From a plasmid, in sequence record NZ_CP123987.1: a stretch of DNA of 64,000 nt; one strand, written 5' to 3'. The position numbers and the translations under genes were made by a program. Below, piece by piece: positions 20,823 to 27,841 of the stretch (position 1 is the stretch's first letter; each line of letters starts with the position of its first letter). Under the pieces are notes generated by a model. That model was not told where the DNA came from and searched no databases. It was given only the letters and a program-made list of their open reading frames with translations.

Positions 20823-21152
20823 TTGTTAATCTACAATAATCCTACCCTAATCTTTACGAAATAAAAATCTACCAGTGGTTTAATGGTAAAGAATATTCAA
20901 AAAATTTTTATTAATTATTATTTTTTAGAACGTTTTACTTTTGCAGCAACTAAGATAAGAAATAGTGGAATAATACCGGCAACTCACCCATATTTAAAAA
21001 TATCAATTATTCAATAGTAATAATACAATAAAAACTAGTATTGACTTTTTCATATGTACTCCTTAACTTCAAAATAAAAAATTAAGAAAAATCATTAAGT
21101 AAAAATATACTTTTTTAATTTGATTTTTCCTAACTTTCTTACTCTATTGATT

Positions 21153-21350
21153 TTAACGCTTTCTTTCATAACGTTTTGTTGTCACCAATGATTGATAGAC
21201 ATATCTTATACCTAGGTAAGTAAATAATATATCAATAATTGCAAATAAAAAATATCCTTTATCAAGAAAAATACTTCCTACTGCTATTGATAACATTACT
21301 AAACCGATATAAAAAGTATAATTTTTATAAAAATTTTTATTTATTTTCAT
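21153..21350 (-). CDS. Small membrane protein (hypothetical)
   Basis: 65 aa, 2 TM segments. Confidence 0.35.
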   Translation of the reverse strand: MKINKNFYKNYTFYIGLVMLSIAVGSIFLDKGYFLFAIIDILFTYLGIRYVYQSLVTTKRYERKR

Positions 21351-21857
21351 ATATTACTCTCCATTTCTACTAATAACTTCAGCTAGATTTTTCCATTATA
21401 TAATTTCATTTCCTAGTTTTAATTTATCATATTCTCAAATCATCGTGCCTAAATTATCGAATTAGGTCTTTTTTAATACATATCTGGCTTAACCAAATAC
21501 GCTTTAAAAAGTTCATATTAGGCTTGAAAAATCATCCTATCTTTCATTTGAAATACAATAACTATAGGTAATTATCTTAAATAAGGATGTGAAAAAAGTG
21601 AATAAAAGAATAGACTACTTTATTGGTATAGCCAATATATGTACAGGAATCCTAATGTTGTTTAATAGTAATAACTTATATCCCTTAATTTTTTGTATGA
21701 TGGGATTAATTTCTATAATTGCAACTACATTGAAGAAGTGAATACTAACTTTTATCTAATTTTGTTTAACATATTTAGCGACCCATTACTTTATATTGTA
21801 AATATATTAATAATAGTCAATAAACATTTGCAAAGATAATCATGAGATGTCATATAA

Positions 21858-21893
21858 AGAGGGTTGGAATACCCTAAGTTCCAACCCTCTTTA
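21858..21893. terminator. Terminator hairpin downstream of the QS operon
   Basis: AGAGGGTTGGAA...TTCCAACCCTCT perfect 12-bp stem. Confidence 0.8.
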
Positions 21894-22139
21894 TTAATTA
21901 TATTTTCTATTTTGTCTAATTTCTTTAATCAACATAACTATAAAAATCATTAATGTTCCCAATAAGATTAAACCTCTCATTGTTAACATAGGAGTTCGCA
22001 TAAGCCCATTTAAATTCAGTAATATTAACAATAGAAACCCTGCATACTTACTATTTCTCGTAAAATTCACTTTCAACCTTGAAATTACCATAAACCCTAC
22101 AATTAGCAATATAATAATACTTGTTTCTACCATGATCAT
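21894..22139 (-). CDS. Small membrane protein encoded downstream of the response regulator
   Basis: 81 aa, 3 TM segments. Last gene of the HK-RR operon. Confidence 0.5.
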   Translation of the reverse strand: MIMVETSIIILLIVGFMVISRLKVNFTRNSKYAGFLLLILLNLNGLMRTPMLTMRGLILLGTLMIFIVMLIKEIRQNRKYN

Positions 22140-22168
22140 TCACCACCTACACTAATAAACACAAAAAA

Positions 22169-22963
22169 TTAAACTGTTTTCAAATTATACCTTTCAATCA
22201 AACTTTTCATTTTAGCCTTACTTCTCCTAGGAAAAGTCTCCTTATATCCATCTTTAAAAGAAATACTCCTTGTTGACAGGTTAATTTCAACAATATTACT
22301 TGGATTAGCTAAACAAGATTGTGATATTTTTTCTAGAAAATCATTTTCTACCTCTAACTTCTTAATATCGCCTGTAAACTCACCCATACCATTAACTGTA
22401 ACTATTTTCAATCTATGTGACTTAGGAGTGGTAATAATATATAGAATATCATTGATATTTTCGTTAATAATTCTTCTGCCCATTTTATAGCTAAATGTCA
22501 TTTTCTTTATGGCATGAGATTCCCTAATTCTCCTTGCAGCTAATGATAAAGTCTCATTTAGTCGTTTTTGAATCACTTCATCATTATCATTTTTAGTAAT
22601 AAAATCCAATGCTCCAGTACGACGTCGATAAGTCATTGCTGCTAGATTTTCATAAGCTGTAATAAAAATTATCTGTGCATTTGGATCTTTTTGTCTAATA
22701 AATTCAGCTAAATCTATCCCATCTCTATCTGCTTTATCTTTACTAAGTTCAATATCTAAAAAATAAACTCCACTATCTACTTTGTTATCTTCCAAATAAT
22801 CGGCTACTTCAATATAACTATTAGCTTCCAAAGTTATTTTAAATTTTTTACCTTTACTGTCAGCAGAATCTTCTAAAGACCAAATAGCATATTTAACTAG
22901 ATCATGTATCCTTCTAACTTGATCCTTCTCATCGTCACAAATAATAATTCCATATTCTTCCAA
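22169..22963 (-). CDS. LytTR-family response regulator (AgrA/PlnC-like)
   Basis: N-terminal receiver domain (IIICDDE... D.. K) and C-terminal LytTR DNA-binding domain (YIITTPKSHRLKIVTVNGMGEFTGDIKKLE). Confidence 0.85.
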   Translation of the reverse strand: MEEYGIIICDDEKDQVRRIHDLVKYAIWSLEDSADSKGKKFKITLEANSYIEVADYLEDNKVDSGVYFLDIELSKDKADRDGIDLAEFIRQKDPNAQIIFITAYENLAAMTYRRRTGALDFITKNDNDEVIQKRLNETLSLAARRIRESHAIKKMTFSYKMGRRIINENINDILYIITTPKSHRLKIVTVNGMGEFTGDIKKLEVENDFLEKISQSCLANPSNIVEINLSTRSISFKDGYKETFPRRSKAKMKSLIERYNLKTV

Positions 22964-22976
22964 ATTAAACTACCCC

Positions 22977-24264
22977 TTAAATGCTCATAACCATAAGGAA
23001 AGTAAACCAACCATCTTTAATTTGATAATTAATAAAAATATCATTATAAGATTGACTTAATTCTTCTATATTAGCTAATCCTAATCCGTCATGATTCTTC
23101 TTAGTTGTAAAACCTGATTTTTTTATATCTTGAATTGTTAGATCGGTATCTCGATAACGATTTCTAATCTCAATTTCAAGTTCACCATTTTCTTGATAAA
23201 TCATAGTATCTATCTTAGCTTCATCACCAAACTCAAGACTTTCTTCAATTGCATTATCGTACACAATTCCTAATATTCTAACAATGTCAAACGAGTTATA
23301 CTTATTCGACAAGTTTTCTATCACAATTCGACATTCAAAAGAATATTGAATATTGTTTTGAAAGATTCTATTCAACTTACTGATAAATAGACTCTTTAAT
23401 AATTCATCTTTAACATTGTCAACATCATTAAACTGCCATAATACTTTATCTTCTAAAGTCTTACTTGAATATTCAGCTAGTTTATCTATTAACTCTTTAT
23501 CATGACTTTTTTTACACTGAGTTTCAAGCTTAATAGCATATTTTGATAATCGTGCTTAAATTTACGTAAACCTCGCTGGCTACTTTCTAACTGTTGTGTA
23601 TAAATTTTTAGATCATTAATTTGTTGTAAACTTAATTTATCCTGCCGTATTTTCTTATTAATGGAATATACAAATAATGAAAAGAACAATTGGCTAACAA
23701 CAACTACCGTAGCTATAATATACGATACTGCATCTATATTAAATACATATGTTGTTAGATAGTAAATAACCATTGAACTAATCCATATGTATAAAATTAA
23801 ATAAAAATACAATAATCCATACTCATCATCTAGTTTCTCTATTATAGTCGTCTTTGTTAAAATTATATATTCAAAAATGTTTAATGACACATCTAATATT
23901 ATCACACTGACCATTGTGTAATAATTTGTAAATAATGTAAAAAATAATGCTGAAGCACCGAATGTTATATAGGAAAATAAATCTAGCATTAACAACCTTC
24001 CACATAATCTGTAATCCAAAGTTAGTTGTCTGTATACAATATAAAAAATAAAAATTTCAATAAATGGTGCAAAAAAACCAATAATATCTCCAACACCATT
24101 AATTAAAAGAATTACAGGAAAAGTAAGAAGTATAAATAATAAATTATACTTCTTACTTTTCCTAGTAGGGGTCAAAAGATAAAAAAACTATATCTACAAA
24201 AAGTATTTATAAATAAAATTAGTGTAGCTACTATATAACCAGATGTTGAATTTAAATTAACCAT
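22977..24264 (-). pseudogene. AgrC-like (HPK10) histidine kinase, frame-disrupted
   Basis: ATG at 24262-24264 overlaps the IP stop (TAATG). The frame is lost at an A7/T7 tract at 24181-24187. The TM sensor plus H-box (RKFKHDYQNML) ORF runs 23489..24175. The HATPase part (GLGLANIEE) 22977..23375 is in the same frame but separated by TAA, TAG, TAG. The intervening 45 nt read sensibly (SHDKELIDKLAEYSSK) only in another frame. Confidence 0.7.
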
Positions 24265-24380
24265 TATTTACAAACACCAAAAAATGTGAATATACATTGC
24301 CATCTTTTAAAGCCACCCTTTTTGGTTGCTCCCCCAGCTATTTTCTGTAACTTCTTTTCTGTTAACACTTCAAACTTCAT
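24264..24380 (-). CDS. Induction-peptide (autoinducer) precursor with double-glycine leader
   Basis: Unannotated 38-aa ORF MKFEVLTEKKLQKIAGG/ATKKGGFKRWQCIFTFFGVCK. RBS GGAGAG 7 nt upstream. Immediately upstream of and overlapping the HK start. Classic IP-HK-RR arrangement. Confidence 0.75.
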   Translation of the reverse strand: MKFEVLTEKKLQKIAGGATKKGGFKRWQCIFTFFGVCK

Positions 24381-24499
24381 AAAAAATCTCTCCTTTGTTA
24401 TCTTTATTACAAATATAGTTTAACATTTTTTAATCTACTTTATTCGTTTTTTATCATATTCGGTTCATTTTAATGCTTATTTGGATGAAATTCTTAAAA

Positions 24500-24688
24500 C
24501 TATAGCCACCACATAAAATTTAACACCCACGCTCTCACATAACTTATTTTCTTATTCTTTTCTATGACTTTCTCATCAAATAACTTATGATGCCCCTCTT
24601 CTTTTAGACTAGTATAAATACTGATAAAAATACTATATGCAACTATTACAGTAATCCCAAATATCATATACTCACTTCCTAATCCCAA
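24500..24688 (-). CDS. Small membrane protein, candidate bacteriocin immunity protein
   Basis: 62 aa with one TM segment, directly downstream of the two bacteriocin peptide genes. Confidence 0.4.
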   Translation of the reverse strand: MGLGSEYMIFGITVIVAYSIFISIYTSLKEEGHHKLFDEKVIEKNKKISYVRAWVLNFMWWL

Positions 24689-24811
24689 AATATATTATGT
24701 TCTATTAAAAATAAAAGTAGTGTCAAATTTAGCTATATACTATAACTTACACTTGACACTACTTGAAGAAAAATAGATTTATTTCTTATTTTCTAATTCA
24801 TTAGACTTATT

Positions 24812-25018
24812 CTAACGGCAACTTGTAAAGCCACCAGAAATTCCACCCGCTACGGCTGACCAGGGTCCACCGATAGCTCCAATTAAAGCTCCACCTACGA
24901 TGCCAGCTCCACAGTGAACCCAGCGATTTCCACTACCACCATAACCATTTTTACCACCATTTACTGATGCTAAGTTATCTTCAGTCATAATTGTGAATCT
25001 TTTATCTAGATTTTTCAT
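24812..25018 (-). CDS. Class IIb bacteriocin peptide (beta-like), GG-leader, Gly-rich
   Basis: MKNLDKRFTIMTEDNLASVNGG leader, then KNGYGGSGNRWVHCGAGIVGGALIGAIGGPWSAVAGGISGGFTSCR with multiple GxxxG motifs. Resembles LafX/GatX-type peptides. RBS AGGAG 9 nt upstream. Confidence 0.8.
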   Translation of the reverse strand: MKNLDKRFTIMTEDNLASVNGGKNGYGGSGNRWVHCGAGIVGGALIGAIGGPWSAVAGGISGGFTSCR

Positions 25019-25035
25019 TTTAAATTACTCCTATA

Positions 25036-25227
25036 TTATAAACAAGTAAGTGCTCCGCCTACCATTCCTAAGTTTGCTCCACCTACAATACCAGCTGGTC
25101 CAAGTGGAACTCCTGCAGCTGCTCCAGCAAATAGACCACCTAAAAAGTTACCTACACAGTTAGGACCACGTTTCCCACCATCAACCTTTGCTAACTCACA
25201 TTCTGTCAATACTGTAAATTCCTTCAT
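25036..25227 (-). CDS. Class IIb bacteriocin peptide (alpha-like), GG-leader, Gly-rich
   Basis: MKEFTVLTECELAKVDGG leader, then KRGPNCVGNFLGGLFAGAAAGVPLGPAGIVGGANLGMVGGALTCL (GxxxG-rich, 2 Cys). RBS AAAGGA upstream. Start chosen at MKEF; an alternative ATG lies 3 nt upstream. Confidence 0.8.
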   Translation of the reverse strand: MKEFTVLTECELAKVDGGKRGPNCVGNFLGGLFAGAAAGVPLGPAGIVGGANLGMVGGALTCL

Positions 25228-25235
25228 CATGATAA

Positions 25236-25493
25236 TCATCCTTTCATATGTTTATTTACTTTCATCGCAGTATCTAATAAGTAAAGTAGTGTACTACCAC
25301 CTACTAGACAAAAAATAGTGACTATTATCATTTTAGGCGTTTGAATATAATCTAAATAAGACATTTCCTCATTACCAAACAGCCATATTCCTAGTGGAAT
25401 CAATAGTGCCCAAATAACTGGAGCAATAACATATCTCTTCTTTCCTCTAATGAATCCACCATCCAACCAAGTCTCCCATAGTTTTTTTAGCAT
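25236..25493 (-). CDS. Two-TM membrane protein translationally coupled to peptide alpha (immunity / accessory candidate)
   Basis: Stop overlaps the peptide start (ATGA). Start chosen at MLKKLWETW because of the RBS AAAGGGTG. Confidence 0.45.
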   Translation of the reverse strand: MLKKLWETWLDGGFIRGKKRYVIAPVIWALLIPLGIWLFGNEEMSYLDYIQTPKMIIVTIFCLVGGSTLLYLLDTAMKVNKHMKG

Positions 25494-25622
25494 GTAAGAA
25501 CACACCCTTTCTAAAACACTTGTGAAACATATACTTACACTTTTATTGTATTATCATTCCGTATTCAAATATCGATTTAGCGTAAAATACGTTATTCTAT
25601 ACCTAGTTGGTTACATTTCTTT

Positions 25623-25796
25623 TTAACTACAAATATTTTGATTTGAGTGTCTTAATCTTTTAAAAAATTTAGTATTAGCAATTGTACAGCCTATATCGTA
25701 ACCAAACTGTCCGCTATCTATATAATCATAAGAATTTCTTCCACCAATTATATGTGCCAATTCTTTCTTATCAACTTGTACAAAATTATTATTCAT
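25623..25796 (-). CDS. Unannotated GG-leader peptide (bacteriocin-like or pheromone-like), 57 aa
   Basis: MNNNFVQVDKKELAHIIGG/RNSYDYIDSGQFGYDIGCTIANTKFFKRLRHSNQNICS. RBS GAGGTG 9 nt upstream. TATAAT box about 30 nt upstream. Below the ORF-track length cutoff. Confidence 0.65.
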   Translation of the reverse strand: MNNNFVQVDKKELAHIIGGRNSYDYIDSGQFGYDIGCTIANTKFFKRLRHSNQNICS

Positions 25797-26028
25797 AACT
25801 TCAACACCTCATAATTTTAAAAATTTATTATAGCTATAATTTACACTTATAATTATTCACTTCATCTGCTCTTTTTGACTATTTCTTCTAATTTTGCTAA
25901 ATTTTATTCTTATTCTCTTTTTTCAACCAGATAGGCACCGCTTACTACCAAATTGGAAAAATCCCCTCAATTCATCACTTTCTATGTGATAATAAAAATA
26001 CTTTTATAATGAATTGAGGTAAAAAATT

Positions 26029-26292
26029 ATGAATAGTTTTTCTAATAATATTAATTTCAGCAAAATTTCTGTTTCACTAATTACTTTATTCCTGTTGATC
26101 TGGACATTAGTTGATGGAAATCTAATTCATCTTGGTATATTGGCTTTTTCTTCTTTGGTTACAACCATGCTACATTTTCACTATTTTGAATCTACTGATG
26201 ACAAACATCCATTAAATAGAATTGATTTTGGATTACAATTACTATTTATCTTTATTTCTATTATTAAGTTTTTCTTGATTTCAGGAAGATAA
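26029..26292 (+). CDS. Small membrane protein (hypothetical)
   Basis: 87 aa, 3 TM segments, RBS GAGGTAAA. Followed by the terminator at 26299-26340. Confidence 0.45.
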   Translation: MNSFSNNINFSKISVSLITLFLLIWTLVDGNLIHLGILAFSSLVTTMLHFHYFESTDDKHPLNRIDFGLQLLFIFISIIKFFLISGR

Positions 26293-26298
26293 CAATAA

Positions 26299-26340
26299 GC
26301 CTATCAGGTATCAAATTACACCTGATAGGCTTATTTATTA
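26299..26340. terminator. Bidirectional terminator
   Basis: AAGCCTATCAGGT...ACCTGATAGGCTT 13-bp perfect stem. Confidence 0.8.
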
Positions 26341-26650
26341 ACAATTTTGTACTTCTTTTTAAATTTTCTTTCTGGTATAATTTTACGATTAGTGAAATCC
26401 AAGTAATCGCCTATATACCCACTTGCATAAGTTGCCCACCAACCTGAAGGCTCATTAAATAAAGTCTTAAAATTCGTCCAAGCACTAATTTTAACAGGTG
26501 CCTTAACTCCATTCATAATAAATAACAATTTATCACCTGATCACTTTAGATAGTTAGCTTTAAATGCTTCTTTTATCCATTCAGGTTGTTCTGCTGTTTT
26601 ACTTATCTGCCATATTTGTACTTCTTTACCTTTATAGATTGCTTTCATAG
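26331..26650 (-). pseudogene. Paralog of the 28767..29120 protein, inactivated by an in-frame TGA
   Basis: MKAIYKGKEVQIWQISKTAEQPEWIKEAFKANYLK*SGDKLLFIMNGVKAPVKISAW...KKYKIVNK is collinear with MKAIYRGRKVDVWQVSRDNVQPDWVKDAFEHNGLRWLHGSGNKVRIYWPAV...KKYRIVSED. TGA replaces the Trp codon. Confidence 0.6.
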
Positions 26651-26869: not shown

Positions 26870-27841
26870 ATGAGATACATTAAATTTACTTTACTAATAT
26901 ATTCTTTTTTACTAACTTGGGGAATCACCACGAATAGTATATCAGCGGATGAAGTTACACCTACTACAACATCTGAAACAACAGTTACGCCTCAAAGTCA
27001 AAGTACACCTGTTGATTCTAATGATGAGGATGCTGCAATTGAAGAAAAATTTTACTCTCATGATGTTACAATCGATAAATATAATCAAAATGTGGCAAAC
27101 TTCAATAAAGTTAATACTGATACTGTTAAAACCATGGTTACTGAAAATAGCAACAATCTAGACCAAGTTCTTTACATTGGACGTCCTACTTGTTATTTTT
27201 GTCGGCAAGCTTCTCCACATCTACGTGATTTTAACCAACTAATAAATAATCAGCTTTACTACTATGATATTGATGCTGAACCTAATGCTCATGATTTTGC
27301 ATTTAAAGAAATTGGAATTTCTGGAACCCCAACAACTATGCGTTTAAAGAATGGTAAAGTTGTCAGTGCTTGGATTGGTGGCGAAAAAACAGGACAAGAA
27401 TTTTATGACTTTTTATTTTCTGCAGATGCTAACAAGTTAGCAGATTCCTATATCATAAAGAAAACTGTAAGCACGGATACTTCAAATCCTGTTATTACAA
27501 ATAATCAAAATGTTGAACCAACTGTTAAGCCTATATCAACAAATATAAATCAGCTTAAAGAGGAAAAAACTACTCCTGAATTGGTTAATACTACTTCACA
27601 ATCATCTAAACCTGTTAAAAAAATTCATAATCAAACTACTAATAAGAAAAACAAAAATTCTGTTCTACCACAATTAGGGGTTGTCCCTCTTTATCATCAT
27701 CCATTATTTAAACTTCCTATTCCTCGAATTATCCCTAAGCAATTAGAACGTACTATAATGTTAATTACTTTTCTAGTTCTGTATTTGGGGTTCTTAATAT
27801 ATTTATGGTTGAGCTGGAAAGACATAAATAAAAGGAAGTAG
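26870..27841 (+). CDS. Secreted thioredoxin-like (CxxC) protein with C-terminal TM anchor
   Basis: Signal peptide, CYFC motif in a thioredoxin-fold-like region (YIGRPTCYFCRQASPHL), Thr/Asn-rich linker, and a C-terminal hydrophobic helix plus KDINKRK tail. Confidence 0.6.
   Translation: MRYIKFTLLIYSFLLTWGITTNSISADEVTPTTTSETTVTPQSQSTPVDSNDEDAAIEEKFYSHDVTIDKYNQNVANFNKVNTDTVKTMVTENSNNLDQVLYIGRPTCYFCRQASPHLRDFNQLINNQLYYYDIDAEPNAHDFAFKEIGISGTPTTMRLKNGKVVSAWIGGEKTGQEFYDFLFSADANKLADSYIIKKTVSTDTSNPVITNNQNVEPTVKPISTNINQLKEEKTTPELVNTTSQSSKPVKKIHNQTTNKKNKNSVLPQLGVVPLYHHPLFKLPIPRIIPKQLERTIMLITFLVLYLGFLIYLWLSWKDINKRK

Follow-up and report, generated by a model that had tools for sequence, protein, structure and literature searches.

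The gene considered here lies on a stretch of plasmid DNA of 64,000 nucleotides (sequence record NZ_CP123987.1), called the window in what follows. In this window the genes abp118 alpha and beta, abpIM, abpIP, abpK and abpR follow one another, and our subject is abpIP, a very short open reading frame (ORF) placed between abpIM and abpK. The sequence-only reading, made before any comparison with known genes, had proposed at this place, without naming the strand, an unannotated gene for the precursor of an autoinducing peptide. The ORF is where it was said to be, on the minus strand. We are confident that it is the gene for the induction-peptide (pheromone) precursor of the Abp118/salivaricin class IIb bacteriocin locus of a Ligilactobacillus salivarius megaplasmid, and that it belongs, in the window, to a circuit that would no longer function.

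The abpIP gene and its promoter

The ORF is identical to abpIP of L. salivarius UCC118 at 117 of 117 nucleotides (nt) and at 38 of 38 amino acids (aa), and the promoter region, 71 base pairs (bp) upstream, is also base for base that of UCC118. The 4.2 kilobases (kb) around it match solely L. salivarius plasmids, among them pLS2102-15_1 (99.9% identity), pHN3 of strain CECT 5713 (98.5%) and pMP118 of UCC118 (96.2%). An identical protein, found in UCC118, CECT 5713, 2102-15 and other plasmids, is recorded in RefSeq as WP_003703471.1, 'induction peptide AbpIP family protein'. In strain JCM1046, LSJ_2167 is annotated 'AbpIP induction peptide' (PMC4165912), and AbpIP is listed in the cp400 genome (PMC3924384). 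The gene is thus neither new nor generally unannotated, as the sequence-only reading would have had it: it was described in 2002 and has both a Pfam family and an NCBI protein name of its own. The production of Abp118 is presented as autoregulated by a three-component system, AbpIP/AbpK/AbpR, with reference to Flynn et al. 2002 (PMC10095417; PMC2850506). A bioRxiv text retrieved under the name 'AbpIP' was set aside, as it deals with a different and unrelated AbpT/AbpI toxin system.

Translation of the ORF gives MKFEVLTEKKLQKIAGGATKKGGFKRWQCIFTFFGVCK, followed by the stop codon. The first 17 residues form a leader ending with two glycines (GG leader), and the remaining 21 the mature part. The leader scores above the cutoff of the curated double-glycine model TIGR01847 (bacteriocin_sig; 19.9 bits, cutoff 15.7, residues 3-17), and cleavage would take place after Gly-Gly. 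The complete precursor covers the Pfam family PF19154 (DUF5836) from end to end, residues 1-38 falling on positions 1-38 of a profile of 38 (103.7 bits, cutoff 25, E=5e-30). With five lysines or arginines and no acidic residue, the mature peptide has a charge of +5 and an isoelectric point of about 10, which bears out the earlier description of a cationic peptide of 21 aa. Its calculated average mass is about 2452.9 Da when reduced, and would be some 2 Da less with a disulfide. Of the two cysteines, placed by that description at mature positions 11 and 20, the second is where it was counted and the first is at position 12. The peptide had also been called amphipathic. Its helical hydrophobic moment (0.60) is that of shuffled sequences (0.59, with 46% of the shuffles equal or higher), so that helical amphipathicity was rejected; the peptide is instead bipartite, with a polar, cationic N-terminal half (mean Kyte-Doolittle value -1.59) and a hydrophobic C-terminal half (+1.71).

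The stop codon TAA (24266-24264) has one base in common with an ATG (24264-24262) in the context ...AAATAATGG..., the overlap with a histidine kinase start that had been noticed previously. In UCC118 this same ATG opens the intact 429-aa ORF of AbpK, a GHKL kinase. In the window it opens an ORF of just 30 codons, because the kinase gene is frameshifted.

Upstream of the gene stands a pair of imperfect direct repeats (Table 1), identical to that of UCC118 and nearly invariant across the peptide variants, or pherotypes, discussed below, despite the divergence of the coding region that follows. In UCC118 and CECT 5713 a 36-bp box located 5' of abpT is identical to the abpIP box at 27 positions, a value reached by none of 300 shuffles (22.0 ± 1.1). 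In the promoters of the Carnobacterium CS system a 12-bp AT-rich spacer similarly separates two imperfect repeats, each about 10 bp long, and this layout, with the same geometry as the abpIP repeats, was proposed as the site of the regulator CbnR (PMC1634752). We infer that the paired-repeat box would be the operator of AbpR. A scan for the sigma-70 consensus returned 24 sites, against 30 in shuffled sequences, and none in the intergenic region 24381-24499. Searching 21500-26500 against Rfam at a permissive threshold gave no credible match.

Table 1. Position of the features of the abp118 region in the window, with remarks
Feature	Position	Strand	Remarks
abpIP, coding sequence with stop	24264-24380	-	38-aa precursor; leader MKFEVLTEKKLQKIAGG, mature part ATKKGGFKRWQCIFTFFGVCK
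abpIP, leader codons	24330-24380	-
abpIP, mature codons	24267-24329	-
abpIP, stop codon	24264-24266	-
Shine-Dalgarno sequence	24388-24393	-	GGAGAG, 7 nt 5' of the abpIP ATG; invariant in six pherotype variants
Putative AbpR (LytTR) operator	24458-24487	-	direct repeats of 9 bp, imperfect (CATCCAAAT, GAACCGAAT); register 21 bp, with 12 bp of AT-rich DNA between the two; then ATGATAA
abpK pseudogene, HPK10-type histidine kinase	22977-24264	-	three frames: 24172-24264, 23489-24175, 22977-23375
abpK lesion 1	24181-24187	-	T8 of UCC118 to T7; -1 frameshift, codon 29
abpK lesion 2	23507-23513	-	A8 of UCC118 to A7; second -1 frameshift, about codon 253
Perfect inverted repeat, 20-bp stem	24116-24163	-	inside abpK near its 5' end; abpIP ends about 100 nt before it
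abpR, LytTR-family response regulator	22169-22963	-	intact, 264 aa; Pfam Response_reg and LytTR; 97.0% identical to UCC118 AbpR
Terminator-like hairpin at the breakpoint	21854-21894		abpT promoter, abpT and abpD of UCC118/CECT 5713 missing beyond
abpIM, small membrane immunity protein	24500-24688	-	directly 5' of the abpIP promoter; 89% identical to UCC118
abp118 beta prepeptide	24812-25018	-	GG leader, two mature Cys; Pfam Bacteriocin_IIc, E=8e-14; WP_003703485.1 in relatives
abp118 alpha prepeptide	25036-25239	-	GG leader, two mature Cys; Pfam Bacteriocin_IIc, E=1.1e-15; WP_003703435.1 in relatives
DUF5976 gene	25236-25505	-	85-89 aa, annotated 'bacteriocin'; Pfam DUF5976, E=1.8e-35
57-aa GG-leader peptide	25623-25796	-	leader MNNNFVQVDKKELAHIIGG, then RNSYDYIDSG…NICS; own upstream region
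Thioredoxin-fold protein, PedC/BrcD-like	26870-27841	+	323 aa, CYFC motif, divergent

Peptide variants and the kinase sensor

The absence of the ORF from related loci had been put forward as an observation that would speak against a pheromone gene. A tblastn search with the peptide found a member of the AbpIP family in 26 of 26 related plasmids carrying the locus, identical in six and about 60% identical in the other 20. Six variants (UCC118, ZSA5, S35, 2D, BNS11 and C2-1 types) were aligned zone by zone. The leader is the most constant zone (mean pairwise identity 0.93), its first 12 residues and the GG pair being invariant. The mature peptide begins with a hypervariable half (0.34) and ends with the conserved CxFxFxGxCK (0.72), both cysteines being invariant. 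The variants show a whole-codon indel and a coding-type pattern of variation. On the side of the receptor, comparison of the UCC118 type with the others gives an identity of just 43-44% for the membrane sensor domain of AbpK (residues 1-205) and of 80-91% for the cytoplasmic kinase core. The N-half of the peptide and the sensor appear to have diversified together into pherotypes within the species, as a ligand and its receptor would. Such co-variation backs the pheromone role, since it is what ligand-receptor specificity predicts. The pneumococcal pairs ComC/ComD and BlpC/BlpH offer a parallel within one species: the leader is conserved, while the mature peptide and the kinase sensor have diversified together. 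For one inducer/kinase pair, identities of just 59% and 62% to the classical pair had been noted earlier (PMC4942445).

The TAATG overlap is a property of the UCC118-type allele only, the other pherotypes having TAAAATG, with a gap of 1 nt. Tight juxtaposition of abpIP and abpK is thus conserved, while the overlap itself is not. The parallel with plnA and sppIP drawn by the sequence-only reading stands for the architecture (a GG-leader pheromone, then a histidine kinase and a LytTR regulator), and is overstated for the overlap.

With an intact locus, as in UCC118, the 38-aa precursor would be cut after Gly-Gly and exported by the C39-peptidase ABC transporter AbpT, assisted by the accessory protein AbpD. 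The 21-aa cationic peptide, possibly closed by a Cys12-Cys20 disulfide, would then build up outside the cell, where the polytopic N-terminal domain of AbpK would sense it. AbpK would phosphorylate the LytTR regulator AbpR, and AbpR would activate promoters with paired direct repeats, among them that of the abpIP-abpK-abpR operon (autoinduction) and that of abpTD, switching on the production of bacteriocin.

It could be argued that AbpIP is no pure signal, and that killing, as by a small one-peptide class II bacteriocin, is its main function or a second one. Its charge, its hydrophobic C-half and its GG leader would fit that role, one plasmid record (H33) calls a homologue 'bacteriocin', and plantaricin A is a case of a peptide pheromone that is also a membrane-permeabilising antimicrobial (PMC2850506). 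We nevertheless find this unlikely. The match to Pfam PF10439 (Bacteriocin_IIc) that would support it reaches 18.4 bits for a cutoff of 27.1 and is confined to the leader (residues 2-22). abpIP heads a kinase/regulator operon and no immunity gene follows it; the co-variation of its mature N-half with the kinase sensor is expected from ligand-receptor specificity, not from killing; and the literature names AbpIP an inducer (PMC10095417, PMC4165912, PMC3924384). Scores against the ComC/BlpC models, Pfam PF03047 (17.3, cutoff 20.4) and NF033214 (21.6, cutoff 50), again come from the leader only. Falling under the curated cutoffs, membership in the ComC/BlpC and Bacteriocin_IIc families was rejected.

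The AbpIP family is narrow, as a HMMER search of 1.84 billion representatives returned just two true relatives, another pherotype and a frameshifted AbpIP. The top match of that search, P0001, was discarded as a relative: it is an unrelated protein with multiple GG repeats, matched through its leader-like repeats only. In this protein of 497 aa, four tandem segments resembling GG leaders with a Cys-rich core after them (…ELxxIAGGATGDGGxCxPWECGHNHNE…) are joined to a long C-terminal domain, and the whole looks like an unrelated multi-core precursor.

A frameshifted kinase and a lost exporter

In the window abpK is a pseudogene, broken by two changes in homopolymer length into three frames, the last of which carries the HATPase_c_5 domain. 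Because both lesions are one-base changes in runs of 8 nt, the typical error class of some sequencing platforms, one might ask whether they are errors, the kinase being intact and the abpIP-abpK-abpR module still at work. This is very improbable, since the assemblies of 2102-15 and CECT 5713 show the same T7 and A7 alleles, with a further private deletion near codon 15 in each (of 4 nt in 2102-15, where abpR is also split, and a different small one in CECT 5713). Frameshifted abpK genes have moreover been published, both for CECT 5713, which is non-bacteriocinogenic owing to this frameshift (PMC11241558), and for P1CEA3 (PMC10095417). And an intact kinase would not make up for the missing abpT and abpD.

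The inverted repeat present within the 5' end of abpK would fold as RNA into a hairpin of -29.3 kcal/mol (z = -9.4) and belongs to the UCC118-type allele. As a conserved attenuator of abpIP/abpK it was rejected, having no counterpart in four other pherotype alleles. An attenuator or stabiliser specific to this allele is one possible reading, a quasi-palindrome 'corrected' by templated mutation another.

The exporter genes are the second loss. A tblastn search with AbpT found no match in the window, and among ten ORFs scanned with Pfam, chosen as large or as adjacent to the locus, there was no C39-peptidase ABC exporter. abpT and abpD are present in UCC118 and in CECT 5713. Homology to CECT 5713 stops at 21854 and resumes at 20922, and in place of abpT/abpD stand about 930 bp of other DNA (within 20923-21894), with two tiny ORFs for membrane proteins at 21153-21350 (minus strand) and 21589-21741 (plus strand). 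The first 575 bp or so of this filler recur, with an identity of 92-94%, in another 20 plasmids of L. salivarius, next to the locus where mapped. The missing exporter reflects a deletion in the strain and is no general trait of the GG-leader pheromones of three-component class II bacteriocin regulation, and the loss of export genes in 2102-15, P1CEA3 and other strains has been published (PMC11617682).

The circuit of the window is then most probably dead: abpIP and its promoter are intact, abpK is frameshifted, and abpT/abpD are deleted with their promoter. As a consequence of these two losses, the peptide is probably neither exported by its dedicated system nor sensed by the host. An assay of induction by the synthetic peptide in this very strain would therefore fail whatever the peptide; the sequence-only reading had indeed specified a strain with an intact kinase. 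Compared with UCC118, the window has the same placement of abpIP between abpIM and abpK, with the same overlap and no difference in abpIP itself; abpK is intact in UCC118, where abpT/abpD and their promoter are present. CECT 5713 (pHN3) differs from the window by retaining abpT and abpD and by its extra deletion in abpK, and 2102-15 by its 4-nt deletion and split abpR. The closest parallel in published description is the abp118 cluster of P1CEA3, with AbpIP 100%, AbpR 97% and AbpIM 89% identical to UCC118 (the values of the window), abpK in three ORFs through deletions, and abpT/abpD absent; its authors expect neither production nor secretion of Abp118. P1CEA3 is highly sensitive to Abp118, which suggests that the genes are probably unexpressed (PMC10095417). 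The decayed configuration, a frameshifted abpK without abpT/abpD, is thus already known in L. salivarius.

Several points weigh against the identification of abpIP as an inducer gene within a dead circuit. The inducing activity of AbpIP is taken from secondary citations; Flynn et al. 2002 reportedly showed that AbpIP plays a role in the regulation of ABP-118 production. The cleavage site, the disulfide and the binding of AbpR to its box are inferred. A strict scan of the window for CCRAAT-n15-CCRAAT with at most one mismatch gave four matches where 1.5 were expected; the abpIP site alone is convincing, no second copy of the pair being found within the window. The promoter of the abp118 structural operon has only a looser version of the repeats, with a 19-bp spacing, as judged by eye. 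Finally, inspection covered 64 kb, and a second exporter of GG-leader peptides, or a second kinase, is possible elsewhere in the genome. The repeat pair as a regulon motif for the whole window was given up, the second copy being found solely in the abpT promoter of relatives.

The rest of the locus is that of an Abp118 cluster, and the gene at the position of abpIM is named AbpIM in JCM1046 (PMC4165912). Further upstream, RefSeq labels the 57-aa GG-leader peptide 'bacteriocin' or 'ComC/BlpC family'; its positional counterpart in JCM1046 goes under the name 'Nonfunctional salivaricin B precursor'. The DUF5976 gene lies directly upstream of abp118 alpha, in the same orientation; no double-glycine leader was seen by eye in its product, which resembles a small membrane protein and may be an immunity or accessory protein instead of a bacteriocin. 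Between these two genes UCC118 and CECT 5713 have about 0.5 kb more, with an additional 'bacteriocin-like prepeptide' gene, which is missing from 2102-15 and from the window (about 25236-25613).

The cysteine pair and related pheromones

A Cys12-Cys20 disulfide ring in AbpIP is plausible from its sequence and from the company it keeps. Two pheromones resemble it, CS of Carnobacterium maltaromaticum (CbnS, with CbnK/CbnR) and the sakacin A pheromone of Latilactobacillus sakei, which we take to be TNRNYGKPNKDIGTCIWSGFRHC. Like AbpIP they have a GG leader and stand ahead of a histidine kinase/response regulator pair, and their mature forms, in a range of 21-24 aa, have a C-terminal C-x7-C loop of similar composition. 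Unlike AbpIP, which has an extra lysine past the second cysteine, they end without it, and the N-halves are unrelated. The loops read CIFTFFGVC in AbpIP, CVFSFFKKC in CS and CIWSGFRHC in TNRNYGKPNKDIGTCIWSGFRHC (PMC1634752, PMC5762210), the latter being listed simply as a quorum-sensing peptide (PMC5762210). A related quorum-sensing peptide of ten residues, CVFSLFKKCN, oxidises spontaneously to a C1-C9 disulfide (PMC5762210). The HMMER search, at E<=0.001, did not link AbpIP to the CS and sakacin A pheromones, and the likeness is one of motif, not demonstrated homology.

Plantaricin A (PlnA) and SppIP are not known to contain any cysteine and are active as linear peptides, whereas the Cys pair is invariant in the AbpIP family. 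In other respects these systems (plnABCD and sppIP-K-R) follow the same logic as that of AbpIP, with an operon made of the inducing peptide, an HPK10 kinase and a LytTR regulator; the mature peptide is cationic and comes after a GG leader, and autoinduction acts on promoters with direct repeats (PMC2850506, PMC3546714).

A ring could also bring to mind the thiolactone macrocycle made from AgrD-like precursors. AbpK and AbpR share the broad HPK10/LytTR class with AgrC and AgrA, AbpR even matching the AgrA model weakly (92 bits, cutoff 400), and a cysteine is close to the C-terminus of AbpIP. The anatomy of the locus rules this out: the flanking genes are abpIM and abpK and none of the neighbours is AgrB-like, the precursor has a double-glycine leader above the TIGR01847 cutoff, the peptide ends one residue past its second cysteine without the C-terminal recognition tail that AgrD needs, so that the AgrD plan (amphipathic N-terminal helix, autoinducing peptide, charged C-terminal tail) is absent, and export in the intact relatives falls to a C39-peptidase ABC transporter. 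A ring, if there is one, would be a disulfide, and 'autoinducing peptide', the term of the sequence-only reading, is right for a GG-leader pheromone precursor and wrong in its Agr sense. Still less tenable is the idea of a chance ORF without product in AT-rich DNA: ORFs of 38 codons are common in the six-frame list, but this one has a full-length family match (E=5e-30), a strong and invariant Shine-Dalgarno sequence, and a place in 26 of 26 loci, where it varies as coding DNA does and shows a whole-codon indel.

In its mature part, each of the four GG-leader peptides of the locus has exactly two cysteines. The divergent gene at 26870-27841 has as its best NCBIfam match TIGR01295, the PedC/BrcD disulfide isomerase of bacteriocin maturation (E=1.4e-15, profile positions 11-147 of 152), with 57.5 bits, which is under the equivalog cutoff of 120; Pfam Thioredoxin is slightly under its own cutoff. 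It is kept beside the locus in UCC118, CECT 5713 and 2102-15. Its product would be a candidate for an extracytoplasmic enzyme forming disulfides in the two-Cys peptides of the locus.

A tentative scenario, which we hold to be possible but rather doubtful, would be that the pheromones of the AbpIP family are cyclised by a disulfide made by the PedC/BrcD-like enzyme, the C-x7-C ring activating the kinase and the N-terminal tail setting the pherotype. An intact abpIP in a decayed locus, neither sensed nor exported by its own system, would be a relic, or a signal for cross-talk if the genome held another exporter elsewhere.

The value of the present identification lies mainly in annotation and in the prediction of a phenotype, and little in discovery. 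A strain with this window is predicted to be a non-producer of Abp118, even though the structural genes and those for immunity, pheromone and regulator are intact. For specialists, the interest is in whether the Cys12-Cys20 ring is functional, in the number of AbpIP/AbpK pherotypes and their cross-talk, and in a possible action of the PedC/BrcD-like protein on the pheromone. If the scenario of a disulfide ring were true, the AbpIP family would make up a distinct subclass of GG-leader pheromones.

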